Assembly (NCBI GenBank): GCA_049599895.1
Contig: JBMYPC010000109.1
Location: 1-10,370, forward strand
Source of the DNA: Bacteriovoracaceae bacterium
Lineage (GTDB): Bacteria > Bdellovibrionota > Bacteriovoracia > Bacteriovoracales > Bacteriovoracaceae
Reading direction: 5' to 3'
DNA length: 10,370 nucleotides
Numbering within the stretch: position 1 is the first letter of the stretch; each line of letters begins with the position of its first letter. Under the pieces are notes generated by a model, which saw only the letters and a program-made list of their open reading frames with translations, was not told the DNA's origin and made no database searches. Shown piece by piece: positions 2,653 through 8,020 of the stretch. Position numbers and translations under genes: made by a program.

Positions 2653-2680
2653 ATCATAAAAAATGAGGAATTGAAGTCAA
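2653..2680 (-). promoter_or_regulatory. Sigma70 promoter of the YbaK-family gene
   Basis: Minus strand TTGACT (2680-2675), 16 nt, TATGAT (2658-2653); the -10 box ends 12 nt before the ATG. Confidence 0.55.
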
Positions 2681-2703
2681 TATCATACGTTAAGGATGAG
2701 ATC

Positions 2704-3189
2704 GTGAAAAAAGTTTTATTAGGTGCGGGATGTTTTTGGGGTGTCCAAGACATTTTGAAAAAGCAAGAGGGTGTCGCAAAAACTCTTGTGGGCTACGCTG
2801 GTGGAATTATTTCAAACCCAAGCTATAAAGACATTTGTACAGGGCAGACAGGTCATACTGAAGTTGTTCAAGTTGAGTTTGATGAACGGAAGATTTCTTT
2901 TGTGGAGATTCTTAGTGTTTTCTTTCGACTTCACGATCCCACTCAACTGAATCGTCAGGGTGTTGATATCGGCAGTCAATATCGTTCGGCAATTTATGTT
3001 GAGAGTGAAACAGACTTAAATGAAGCAAAAGACTTTATTGAATCACTTGATAAGAAAAAAATCTTTGAAAATAAAATCGTGACTGAAGTAAAGATTGGTG
3101 AAGTCTTCTATGTTGGCGAAGAATATCATCAGGACTACTTCGATAAAAACCCTAATTCAGGTTGTCACTTCCTACGACCAGAGCTCTAA
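2704..3189 (+). CDS. msrA: Peptide-methionine (S)-S-oxide reductase MsrA
   Basis: GAGCFWG active site, [33 protein letters not shown]-terminal GCH. GTG at 2704 after AAGGA is a more likely start than TTG at 2671. Confidence 0.96.
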
Positions 3190-3618
3190 GAACTCACCAT
3201 AGCCTTCTTCTTCAAGCTTCGAAACAGGAATGAATCGCATCGCTGCAGAGTTCATACAATAACGTTTGTTTGTGGGGGCGGGCCCATCGTCAAAGACATG
3301 GCCCAAATGATTATCAGCGTTTTTTGATCTTACTTCAGTTCGAGCTCTTAAAAATAAAGAACGGTCTTCTTTGTAATCAACATTGTCTTGAACCAATGGT
3401 TTTGTAAATGAAGGCCAACCGGTTCCAGAATCATATTTATCAAGGGAGCTAAAGAGTGGTTCTCCGGAGAGAATATCAACATAAATTCCTTGTTCTTGAT
3501 TATCCCAATACTCATTTTTAAAAGCTGGTTCCGTTCCATCTTTTTGAGTTACTTTATATTGCAGCTTAGTAAGCTTTACCTTTAATTCTATTGGGGAAGG
3601 CTTTTTAAAGTCATTCAT
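3172..3618 (-). CDS. msrB: Peptide-methionine (R)-S-oxide reductase MsrB
   Basis: [31 protein letters not shown] and catalytic RYCMNS. Confidence 0.97.
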
Positions 3619-5240: not shown

Positions 5241-5268
5241 AAAAAAAGCTAGGTTTTAGACCTAGCTT
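5241..5268 (-). terminator. Intrinsic terminator of the histone gene (between convergent genes)
   Basis: AAGCTAGGT (5246-5254) and ACCTAGCTT (5260-5268) form a stem with a 5-nt loop; A7 on + gives a U7 tract on the minus strand. Confidence 0.85.
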
Positions 5269-5297
5269 CCTATAACAAAAATAAATTTTATAACTTA

Positions 5298-5531
5298 TTA
5301 TGCCATAATGTCGTATGGGCGGATTGTCTTTCTTCCGTTCGCAGCAGCTTTCTTTTGAGCTTGATCAACTAGCCAGTAAACATACTCGTTCATTGCATCT
5401 AGTGCATCAGCAGAAACATTAAAAGTATTCTTTCCAGAACCTTTAAGAGCTTCTTTAGTTTTTGATCCAACTAATAGCATTTCTTTTGCTGCTTTTTTTG
5501 CTGCTTTCTTTTTTGCTTTTTTCTTGGCCAT
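5298..5531 (-). CDS. Bacterial histone-fold protein (Bd0055/HBb- and Leptospira histone-like) with a Lys-rich N-terminal tail
   Basis: Core of about 60 aa: LLVGSKTKEALK (alpha1), NVSADALDAM (L1 into alpha2), long alpha2, then ANGRKTIRPYDI (L2 RKT motif and R...D clamp, compare archaeal HMf AGRKTIKAEDI). SD AAAGGA 6 nt upstream of the ATG. Confidence 0.88.
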   Translation of the reverse strand: MAKKKAKKKAAKKAAKEMLLVGSKTKEALKGSGKNTFNVSADALDAMNEYVYWLVDQAQKKAAANGRKTIRPYDIMA

Positions 5532-5575
5532 GAGATTTCCTTTGTTAGAAGTATTTGGCTATTTAAGTTTTAAAA

Positions 5576-5604
5576 ATCATAGGAAGCTTCGGTCTTCACG
5601 TCAA
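5576..5604 (-). promoter_or_regulatory. Near-consensus sigma70 promoter of the histone gene
   Basis: Minus strand TTGACG (5604-5599), 17 nt, TATGAT (5581-5576); 5/6 match in each box, with an AT-rich stretch upstream. Confidence 0.75.
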
Positions 5605-5622: not shown

Positions 5623-6105
5623 TCAGCTTTTAGGAGCCTTTTTCGACACTTTAACGATAAAGTCAAACTCTGACTTTTCCACTGGAGTGATAGAAAGTCT
5701 CGATCCCTTTTGAAGCACGCGCATCTCTGAAAGCTCGTCATACTCCTTCATTTCCCTTAATCCGACTGTTCTTGTGAACTTTTTGACATAGGTGACATCG
5801 ACCATAATCCACCTTGGATTTTCAGGATCAGACTTGGCATCGTAGTACTTACTTTTTTTATCAAAAGCAGTATGGTCGGGATAACCCTCACGAGAAATTT
5901 TTGCCACTCCTACGACTCCAGGAACGTCACAATTGGAATGATAAAAGAGGACTTGATCACCAACTTTCATGTCATCTCTCATAAAGTTTCTGGCCTGATA
6001 GTTTCTTACACCATCCCAATGATCAGTTGATTTTGGTGCGTCTTTCAGGTCATCAATTGAAAAGACATCGGGTTCAGATTTCATTAACCAGTATTTTTTG
6101 GCCAT
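5623..6105 (-). CDS. EVE domain-containing protein (THYN1/Thy28-like, PUA superfamily)
   Basis: YWLMKSEPDVFSIDDL, WDGVRNYQARNFMR, GD.VLFYHSN, YPD.TAFD..S.YYD.KS....PRW..VDV, RLSITPV. Confidence 0.95.
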   Translation of the reverse strand: MAKKYWLMKSEPDVFSIDDLKDAPKSTDHWDGVRNYQARNFMRDDMKVGDQVLFYHSNCDVPGVVGVAKISREGYPDHTAFDKKSKYYDAKSDPENPRWIMVDVTYVKKFTRTVGLREMKEYDELSEMRVLQKGSRLSITPVEKSEFDFIVKVSKKAPKS

Positions 6106-6119
6106 AAGGATTTCCTTTT

Positions 6120-6977
6120 TTAATATTTTAAAAGATTTGAAAGTCGTTTTTTTAGAAAACTTGGAAGAGCAAAAGCTCCAACATGTATATCTTCGTTATA
6201 GTACTCAAACTCAAGGTTTGATTCGATAACTCTTTTTTTATCAAAATCATGAATAGGATGAAGTCCCTTGGAAGCAAAGCTAAAGCACCAATGCCCTCCT
6301 GGGTAGGTTAGATTGTGATAAGAGTAAAGAGTGCAAATAGGGAAAATCTCATTCAGGATACTAACAAGCTTCGTTTGCATTGTTTCTTCGTAATGAGGAG
6401 ATTCACATTGGGAGACAACAATCCCATTATCGGTGAGGCAGTTTGAGATGTCTTGATAAAACTCAGGCCCAAAAAGTGGTTGAGCTGGACCAATAGGATC
6501 TGTTGAGTCAACGAGAATGACATCAAACTTCTCTTTTGTTTCTTTTACAAATTTCAATCCATCTTCGATTTTAAGATCTAACAATTGATGAGAAAAAACC
6601 GAAGAAGTTTGAGGGATATGTTCTTTACAAGCATTGACTACCATCTCATCAATTTCGACCATGACACACTTTTTCACTTTAGGATGCCTTAAAACTTCTC
6701 TGGCGGTACCACCGTCGCCGCCTCCAATGACAAGAACCTTTTGTGGGTTCGGGTGAACAAACAGAGGAACATGGGCAATCATGTCGTGATAAATAAACTC
6801 ATCTCTTTCAGTCACCATGACCAACCCATCATTGAGGAGCATTTTTCCATGGCCTTTGGTTTCGACAACATCAACTTTTTGAAATTGGCTCTGTCCTGAA
6901 AAGAGAACTTTTTCGACTTTGTAACGATTCCCTAAATAATCTGAATGCTTTTCTTCAATCCACAGGTCTGAATACAT
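6120..6977 (-). CDS. speE: Polyamine aminopropyltransferase (spermidine synthase)
   Basis: S.FQ, L.NDG..M.TERDEFIYHDMIAHVPL, VLVIGGGDGGTAREV, VEID, FDVILVDSTDPIGPA, TYPGG.W.F, YYN..IH..AFALP. Confidence 0.95.
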   Translation of the reverse strand: MYSDLWIEEKHSDYLGNRYKVEKVLFSGQSQFQKVDVVETKGHGKMLLNDGLVMVTERDEFIYHDMIAHVPLFVHPNPQKVLVIGGGDGGTAREVLRHPKVKKCVMVEIDEMVVNACKEHIPQTSSVFSHQLLDLKIEDGLKFVKETKEKFDVILVDSTDPIGPAQPLFGPEFYQDISNCLTDNGIVVSQCESPHYEETMQTKLVSILNEIFPICTLYSYHNLTYPGGHWCFSFASKGLHPIHDFDKKRVIESNLEFEYYNEDIHVGAFALPSFLKKRLSNLLKY

Positions 6978-6987
6978 TAAATCCTCT

Positions 6988-7914
6988 CTATTTTAGATTG
7001 ATCGGCTTTATCGCCTGAACTTTGGGGTTAAAATAATGAGTGAAACTTACATAATAGCCACAGTCAATTTTGTCTTCCACACGTTTTTTGACCTGAAACT
7101 TAGGATGTTCATAAGTAAAATGCTTCTCAGGAGAAAAGGATATAAAGTCAAAGGAATCGGGCTTTAGAGCTTTAAGAAAGTGGGGAAGGAATGTCTCGGC
7201 AATTTCACTTAAATCAAGACTGGACTCAAAGCTTACGTATGAGTGACAGTCCTGAGGTGTGATATGAATAGTAAAATAATCTGAACCTTTAATACCATTT
7301 ATGGAATATCCATAAGGCTTAAAAACAAAGTCATCAAGAATATAGTCCTTGAAGTGTTTTTCAAATTCGAAGAAGTTTCGCAAATCTTCTTTGCTTTGAG
7401 ACTTTGTGAGAAAGTCAATAATGTCAGATCTTAAGTTATAAGCGAGAAGCTCGAAAGTCTCATCATCTTTTTCTGGGATATACTCTTTTGTAAGATGGTA
7501 GAGAAAAAGGTGATGTTCGTCATAGTTGCCAAAGCGAATGGCCTTTGAATCAAAGTGCTCGTCTAATAGTTTTTGATCGTCAAAGAAGCTTGAGTTTTGA
7601 AGATGCCCACAGTATTCATTTTTTCTTTGAAAGATAAGACTTTGGATATTCTCTTTGCCGAACTTTTCAACGATTTTATCAGCAGCATTGGCAAGTGTTG
7701 TTGTACCGCATGTGATCATTAAAATACGGTCATCCCAAACAAAGAGACTGGACTCAGATAAAAGAAAAGCTATGAGATCACTTGTTTCAACATCATTTAA
7801 AATCTGTGCTTTTGAGGCCTGGACAATCTCATCCCATAACGCAGTGGGCTTTTTCAAGAGTCCACCATCATTAAAAACAACTTCTAGTTTTTTCTCCGAG
7901 CCCTCGAAGATCAT
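6988..7914 (-). CDS. speD: S-adenosylmethionine decarboxylase proenzyme, eukaryote-type (class II) architecture
   Basis: FEGSEKKLEV, AFLLSESSLFV (E-S self-cleavage/pyruvoyl site), TCGTT, F.PYGYSING, YFTIHITPQ...SYVSFES. ATG at 7914 after AAGGTG (308 aa) is more likely than TTG at 7989. Confidence 0.92.
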   Translation of the reverse strand: MIFEGSEKKLEVVFNDGGLLKKPTALWDEIVQASKAQILNDVETSDLIAFLLSESSLFVWDDRILMITCGTTTLANAADKIVEKFGKENIQSLIFQRKNEYCGHLQNSSFFDDQKLLDEHFDSKAIRFGNYDEHHLFLYHLTKEYIPEKDDETFELLAYNLRSDIIDFLTKSQSKEDLRNFFEFEKHFKDYILDDFVFKPYGYSINGIKGSDYFTIHITPQDCHSYVSFESSLDLSEIAETFLPHFLKALKPDSFDFISFSPEKHFTYEHPKFQVKKRVEDKIDCGYYVSFTHYFNPKVQAIKPINLK

Positions 7915-8020
7915 TGCTTTCACCTTTTTGTCATTATTTTGGGCATAATTTAGCGAATCTTTTAAGTTCTGTGAATCATTGATTGGCAAAATCCCCTTAA
8001 TGTCGATAAAATTCCAATGG

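Follow-up and report, generated by a model that had tools for sequence, protein, structure and literature searches.

A face-to-face histone with a lysine- and alanine-rich tail of variable length in the Bacteriovoracaceae

Introduction

A contig of a Bacteriovoracaceae bacterium (GenBank assembly GCA_049599895.1, contig JBMYPC010000109.1; the whole 10,370-nucleotide stretch analysed is called the window here) encodes a 77-residue protein in which a tail of only lysine and alanine precedes a putative histone core. The locus raises the questions of which class of histone the core belongs to, whether the tail is actually produced, and whether such a tail resembles those of eukaryotic histones or has a bacterial source. 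A first-pass annotation had described a bacterial histone with a eukaryote-like tail and treated tailed homologues as a surprise; two papers (PMC10627809 and PMC12701072) still call histone tails generally absent in bacteria, at least in their accessible portions, which accounts for the surprise. The surprise does not hold up, as the available text of Schwab et al. 2024 (PMC11390915) names the Bacteriovoracia as a lineage with face-to-face (FtF) histones and calls positively charged N-terminal tails common, if not conserved.

Results

The histone gene and its genomic context

Translation of the minus strand gives 77 residues and a stop codon, with residues 2–16 consisting of nine lysines and six alanines and a C-terminal end of ANGRKTIRPYDIMA, exactly as first read (Table 1). 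The protein matches 695 others at E ≤ 0.001 (among 1853 candidates), with the nearest named homologues in Bacteriovorax, Halobacteriovorax, and Bacteriovoracaceae, and a genome-wide search of the host (3.27 Mb, 97% complete) returned it as the single full-length histone. For the comparison of loci, 113 were taken (30 from the genome search, 3 HU loci, and the best 80 of 268 further loci), of which the 98 with a core identity of at least 50% and an upstream start were kept (L099 was dropped for lacking such a start), representing 87 distinct proteins. All Pfam matches of the histone fall below the curated cut-offs (CBFD_NFYB_HMF, 0.007; Histone, 0.016; DUF1931, 0.017) and some annotation pipelines will therefore miss it. 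Several relatives are named 'hypothetical protein' at NCBI, but many carry the name 'histone H3/H4' at JGI. A weak match of the protein to AcrF2 (E 0.08–1.4) was dismissed as noise.

Table 1. Features of the histone locus in window coordinates
Feature	Position	Strand	Evidence
Histone gene, 77 residues plus stop	5298..5531	-	ORF translation; homologues; lone full-length histone match in genome
Lys/Ala tail, residues 2-16	5484..5528	-	Charge count; pLDDT; outside all confident interfaces
Histone-fold core, residues 17-77	5301..5483	-	Sequence match; homologue alignment; AlphaFold2 model; Foldseek; four-copy model
Sigma-70-type promoter-like site, TTGACG-17-TATGAT	5576..5604	-	Score 10/12; 44 nt upstream of start codon
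Shine-Dalgarno-like AAGGA	5538..5542	-	6 nt upstream of Met1
Intrinsic-terminator-like hairpin with T run	5243..5271	-	Between histone gene and convergent DUF501 gene

The sequence confirms a real gene equipped with its own sigma-70-type promoter-like site, a Shine-Dalgarno before Met1, and a terminator-like hairpin. Taken alone, the scan for such signals performs at chance level (three promoter-like sites against 2.4 expected, and one terminator against 0.8 expected), so that the promoter call draws its support from the position of the site and from similar sites in relatives, where promoter-like sites scoring at least 9/12 lie upstream of the histone gene in 65 of the 98 loci, a count without a shuffle control.

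The gene stands alone, flanked by a convergent DUF501 gene on one side and a co-oriented EVE-domain gene on the other; speD, speE, and then the EVE-domain gene (window 5623–7989, minus strand) run into it on the same strand. A functional link to the EVE-domain gene, speE, speD, DUF501, or a fructosamine kinase was considered and rejected, as none of these occurs near the histone in the other loci (1.5–3 kb flanks). The only recurrent neighbours of the histone are msrB (13 loci) and msrA (12 loci). Two genes of the window (2671–3618), which we take to be msrA and msrB-like, lie 1.7–2.6 kb from the histone, and msrA/msrB within 3 kb of the histone in the 12–13 other loci are arranged differently from those of the window. 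A domain search of the window found no modifying enzyme.

A histone core of the face-to-face type

Among histones of solved structure, the sequence is nearest to HLp of Leptospira perolatii (phmmer, 6.2e-10; PDB 9QT0–9QT2; PMC12701072), followed by HBb (Bd0055) of Bdellovibrio bacteriovorus (1e-4; PDB 8CMP, 8FVX, 9EZZ, and 9F0E) and HTkC (5e-4). An AlphaFold2 model (44 of 120 listed homologues aligned; mean pLDDT 85) places helices at residues 22–30, 41–64, and 72–76 and has the FtF shape, with a short helix 2 and a helix 3 truncated to one turn. The fold search with Foldseek that had been proposed at the outset returned a histone match, ranking HLp first (rmsd 1.4 Å, 43% identity) and HBb next (1.6–1.7 Å, 36% identity), while nucleosomal histones superpose at about 3 Å or more (HMfB at rank 49, 4.1 Å). 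With a one-turn helix 3 and no full-length helix 2 or 3 to build a four-helix bundle, the protein does not belong with the nucleosomal HMf-type and eukaryotic histones.

Residues of known role in HLp (PMC12701072) were mapped by way of the phmmer alignment, and most of the FtF features have a counterpart. The RxTxxxxD motif, or RD clamp, is present (R67, T69, and D74) and invariant in the 44 aligned sequences, as is N65, the equivalent of the conserved FtF tetramer asparagine (HLp N53, H. volcanii N45), which sits in the predicted dimer-dimer interface and where HBb has an aspartate. The helix-1 lysines K24 and K26 are invariant and K30 nearly so in the same alignment (HLp K15, K17, and K21), and five of the nine HLp DNA-contact residues are identical (S23, K24, K26, K30, and T69). 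The FtF tetramer arginine (HLp R49, H. volcanii R41) is a lysine here, Lys61, which remains in the predicted interface together with the C-terminal residue 77; among the 87 relatives this position is Arg in 53 and Lys in 34. Further departures from HLp are a loop 1 longer by three residues, an RKT motif, and the N-terminus, which in HLp is short, not Lys-rich, and unresolved in the crystals and is here a 16-residue tail of +9. HLp also differs in context, with no SMC/MAP neighbourhood in the window and with Leptospira lacking HU where the host genome carries three HU/IHF genes. Residue 62 is a cysteine in most relatives (alignment consensus) and an alanine in this histone.

HBb, from the same phylum, shares the truncated fold; it differs as a strict dimer without a long basic tail, and the higher likeness to HLp and the identity of N65 place the protein outside the HBb/Bd0055 type. 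Together, the alignment and the model confirm a histone fold nearest to the FtF histone HLp, in agreement with the first impression of a protein closer to the Leptospira type than to Bd0055. The protein falls within a described family and lineage: the available source data of Schwab et al. (PMC11390915) class E1WYC3 of Halobacteriovorax marinus SJ as 'Face-to-face', it is also named in a supplementary figure legend, and the lengths given there for bacterial FtF histones are 51 to 127 residues.

A predicted tetramer

Modelled in four copies, the protein gives a handshake dimer and a second contact at residues 57, 60–61, 64–65, 71–74, and 76–77, the surface used by HLp, including the equivalents of HLp R49, S52, N53, and T61. 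Oligomer modelling, which the first-pass annotation had suggested, gave a score of 0.91 against 0.01 for the best control (0.79 in one of three runs), at least 90% of contacts agreeing between runs, and a partner pLDDT of at least 75. Of the proteins solved as same-chain pairs, 20 of 30 attain the mark set for this score, as does 1 of 23 single chains; these counts hold only roughly for a run with its own alignment and four copies. The pass may reflect memory of the solved HLp and HTkC, and since both structures already exist, the model speaks for likeness rather than for binding. The contacts are listed for one copy only, a format in which a closed torus (both sides touching) is not visible. 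The tail is absent from every confident interface of the model. Residues 19–21 of one monomer meet those of the other next to the DNA-binding lysines of helix 1, and the tails would thus emerge near bound DNA.

Probable production of the tail

Translation could in principle begin at Met18, in which case the tail would never be produced. A start codon is found at this position in 75 of the 87 relatives and, according to the accessible text of PMC12701072, a shorter start is preferred over a longer annotated one in HLp. The signals around the two starts argue otherwise: no Shine-Dalgarno precedes Met18 in the window, a Shine-Dalgarno-like match of at least four bases lies upstream of the equivalent position in just seven of the 87 relatives, and 12 relatives have no start codon there at all (GTT or ACA), all of which have tails of 13–30 residues. 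Further, 74 of the 87 begin with Met-Ala-Lys. A Shine-Dalgarno before Met1 in 87 of 87 relatives was set aside as evidence, as the start was picked by that score and the count is circular. From these sequence signals the tail is very probably made and a Met18-only start is extremely improbable; the description of the protein as a tailed bacterial histone stands.

Composition and variability of the tail

The tail carries a net charge of +9 out of +11 for the whole protein and is predicted to be disordered (pLDDT 53 at residues 1–10), with no secondary structure before residue 22. Such a start is rare in the genome, where a Lys/Ala/Thr/Pro-rich 15-mer directly follows Met in 3 of 22,247 six-frame open frames. 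An alignment of homologues, proposed at the outset as a check on tail conservation, shows none: tails among the 87 relatives range from 4 to 43 residues (median 10) and consist of Lys/Ala/Thr repeat-type sequence, with no conserved sequence that would hold fixed modification sites. The family can do without a long tail, as 47 of the 87 relatives have tails shorter than 12 residues (at least 12 in the other 40). In 15 pairs that share a core identity of 93% or more, the tails are 10 or more residues apart in length. Composition is steadier, with long tails at 48% Lys, 26% Ala, 11% Thr, 2% Arg, and under 1% Gly, and with a net charge of at least +2 in 65 of the 87. In eukaryotes, the H3/H4 tails have a high content of Arg, Gly, and Ser. 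Of the 100 usable singlets among distant representatives (from 150 listed of 630 found), 50 have a tail of at least 12 residues and a charge of at least +4, a fraction biased upward by the presence of the tail in the search profile.

No compensation between tail and core charge was detected (rho +0.20, p 0.06, n = 87, rows not independent), nor a significant co-variation of histone-tail and SWIB-tail length (rho 0.43, p 0.29, n = 8 after removal of cut frames and genomes without either gene). A quick core tree has 14 long/short label changes against 29 when shuffled; built on 61 columns, with 4 of 82 branches strongly supported and a careful search unfinished, it falls short of proof that long tails were gained and lost repeatedly and is compatible with a single origin.

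H1-like repeats elsewhere in the genome

The host genome holds six other Lys-rich tracts of tail-like composition, one of 132 residues N-terminal to a SWIB domain, one at the C-terminal end of a frame of 756 residues (presumably a subunit of a type II topoisomerase), and four in further frames. Lys/Ala/Thr tracts were noted on contigs C107 (10136–10765), C97, C82, C64, C194, C219, and C141. The 4-mers of long histone tails are present in the six other tracts at 64%, against 29% when shuffled (maximum 36%, 500 shuffles), and the same repeats occur on SWIB proteins across the family, in genomes with and without a detected FtF histone. The match is one of shared vocabulary rather than proof of common descent, and by it the histone tail looks like the lineage's H1-like repeat module, not a relic of an H3/H4 tail. 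The label 'eukaryote-like' thus survives for charge and disorder, but not for the rest, given that neither length nor sequence is conserved and that the repeats match bacterial H1-like tracts of the same genome.

Distribution among related genomes

Some histone match occurs in 27 of the 41 genomes searched. With this histone as the query, the 24 genomes of the same family divide into 14 with a close homologue (E below 1e-13), five with distant matches only, and five with none. Given that 10 of the 24 family genomes yielded no close homologue and that the host has three HU/IHF genes, the histone is not necessarily the chief chromatin protein of its host.

Among the family loci, the histone of L008 is identical to those of L081 and L087 (Halobacteriovorax), and a Halobacteriovorax marinus locus (L095) has a core 80% identical with a tail of 22 residues. 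Three same-family genomes each have two FtF-type singlets (L006/L028, L003/L030, and L010/L029 in genomes G001, G009, and G023, respectively); in the last pair one tail has 16 residues and the other four, possibly a pair of tailed and tail-less variants. Eleven loci (L034, L036, L040, L042, L045, L051–L053, L062, L074, and L078), mostly Candidatus Omnitrophota records, have histone cores 74–90% identical and are scattered among Bacteriovoracaceae sequences in the weak tree, for which transfer between phyla, mis-binning, and strong conservation are candidate explanations.

No second full-length histone was found in the host genome, only a short remnant. A stretch of contig C141 (2145–2210, plus strand) codes for just the last ~15 residues of a ZZ- or doublet-type histone and lies directly 3' of a two-gene pair, presumably a RelE-like toxin and an XRE-type antitoxin. 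Neither a full-length ZZ or doublet histone nor a second copy of this DNA was found in the assembly, and the stretch may be what is left of a second histone gene that an insertion displaced. For another Bacteriovorax strain, the accessible part of PMC11789641 reports only a doublet histone.

Discussion

The gene most likely encodes a monocistronic FtF histone that forms a DNA-wrapping tetramer, from which disordered, translated tails add electrostatic grip, with the tail acting as a labile, H1-like DNA-tether module. Handshake dimers would join into the tetramer by contacts at the end of helix 2, in loop 2, and in the short helix 3, as modelled here and solved for HLp, and DNA would wrap the tetramer without sequence preference over about 60 bp, by extension from HLp, for which the available text of PMC12701072 describes a tetramer in solution without DNA and sequence-independent wrapping of that length. 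The 16-residue tail, in all likelihood translated and predicted to be disordered, bears most of the positive charge and in the model exits the core beside the helix-1 DNA-binding face; the most likely role of the four tails per tetramer would be an electrostatic hold on wrapped or linker DNA, with a gain in affinity and compaction. The tail itself would be a freely growing and shrinking Lys/Ala/Thr repeat of a bacterial DNA-tether kind and no homologue of eukaryotic H3/H4 tails. Counting against this explanation are Lys61 in place of the FtF arginine, the short tails of more than half of the relatives, the family genomes in which the gene was not found, the lack of a correlation between the tail and either core charge or the SWIB tail, and a tree too poorly supported to establish repeated expansions.

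The replaced arginine, along with a monomer fold matched nearly as well by HBb, could be taken to indicate a dimer of the Bd0055/HBb type, bending or coating DNA instead of wrapping it as a tetramer. The invariant N65, the higher identity to HLp, the confident dimer-dimer contacts of the model, and the naming of the Bacteriovoracia as an FtF lineage make this very unlikely. The variability of the tail lends itself to another account, in which the core does the work and the tail is a near-neutral repeat expansion whose length drifts by slippage; lengths of 4–43 residues on near-identical cores, the 14 long/short changes on the quick and poorly resolved tree, and the lack of a significant link to SWIB-tail length or core charge are all in keeping with it. 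Drift of that sort is rather unlikely in view of a tightly held composition, the positive charge of most tails, and the basic tails of half of the usable distant representatives, itself a figure biased upward.

A regulatory platform, as in eukaryotes and Asgard archaea, in which acetylation or methylation of lysines would toggle nucleoid compaction, for instance between the attack and growth phases of a predator, would exploit the concentration of charge in the tail, where neutralisation would matter, and the host genome encodes a single sirtuin and a single HDAC-family protein. For Asgard histones, the accessible part of one report (10.64898/2026.07.02.735847) describes tail acetylation with writers and erasers. 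The absence of a conserved tail sequence or length argues against site-specific reading in the histone studied here, a SET domain was not found in the 97% complete genome, sirtuins and HDACs are common in bacteria and thus not specific (10 and 9 of 14 control genomes, respectively), the window has no modifying enzyme, and a full-length ZZ histone, the proposed tail reader, was not found in the genome. Acetylation or methylation of the tail is a possible but unsupported speculation, and the regulatory platform is clearly unlikely. A bolder variant has one H1-like module shared by several nucleoid proteins (the FtF histone, SWIB, and topoisomerase-like proteins) that on the histone would serve as a built-in linker histone, its length and acetylation state tuning condensation between predatory phases, an independently evolved regulated tail; this is an unlikely proposition.

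Known systems share some features with the tailed histone. Pseudomonas AlgP (PMC9239181) and Chlamydia Hc2 (PMC2848022) are described, in the portions available, as DNA-binding proteins with Lys/Ala-rich short repeats whose length varies by repeat gain and loss; their tracts of ~150 residues or more occur without a histone fold and are of the same sequence kind, with no homology claimed. Asgard and eukaryotic core histones have a histone fold extended N-terminally by a basic, disordered segment, but are nucleosomal, with longer helices (rmsd ~3 Å or more) and tails for which modifying enzymes have been shown, whereas there is no conserved tail motif here. The accessible text of PMC11390915 describes the tails as 'H3-like'; the present data speak instead for bacterial repeats of the H1-like kind, and the sequence evidence favours an independent origin of the tail from such repeats.

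Both the class and the tail have already been described for the Bacteriovoracia, and the 77-residue histone is one more member of the same family and lineage as the tailed FtF histones of Schwab et al. In the literature searched, mostly without subscription journals, no bacterial FtF histone was found whose tail had been studied experimentally. The value that is left lies in the tail-length series and in the link to lineage-wide H1-like repeats. The family provides a natural series in which cores at least 93% identical carry tails of 8 to 37 residues, some of them in named Halobacteriovorax and Bacteriovorax strains, and the series makes both a role for a prokaryotic histone tail and its origin independent of eukaryotic tails directly testable.
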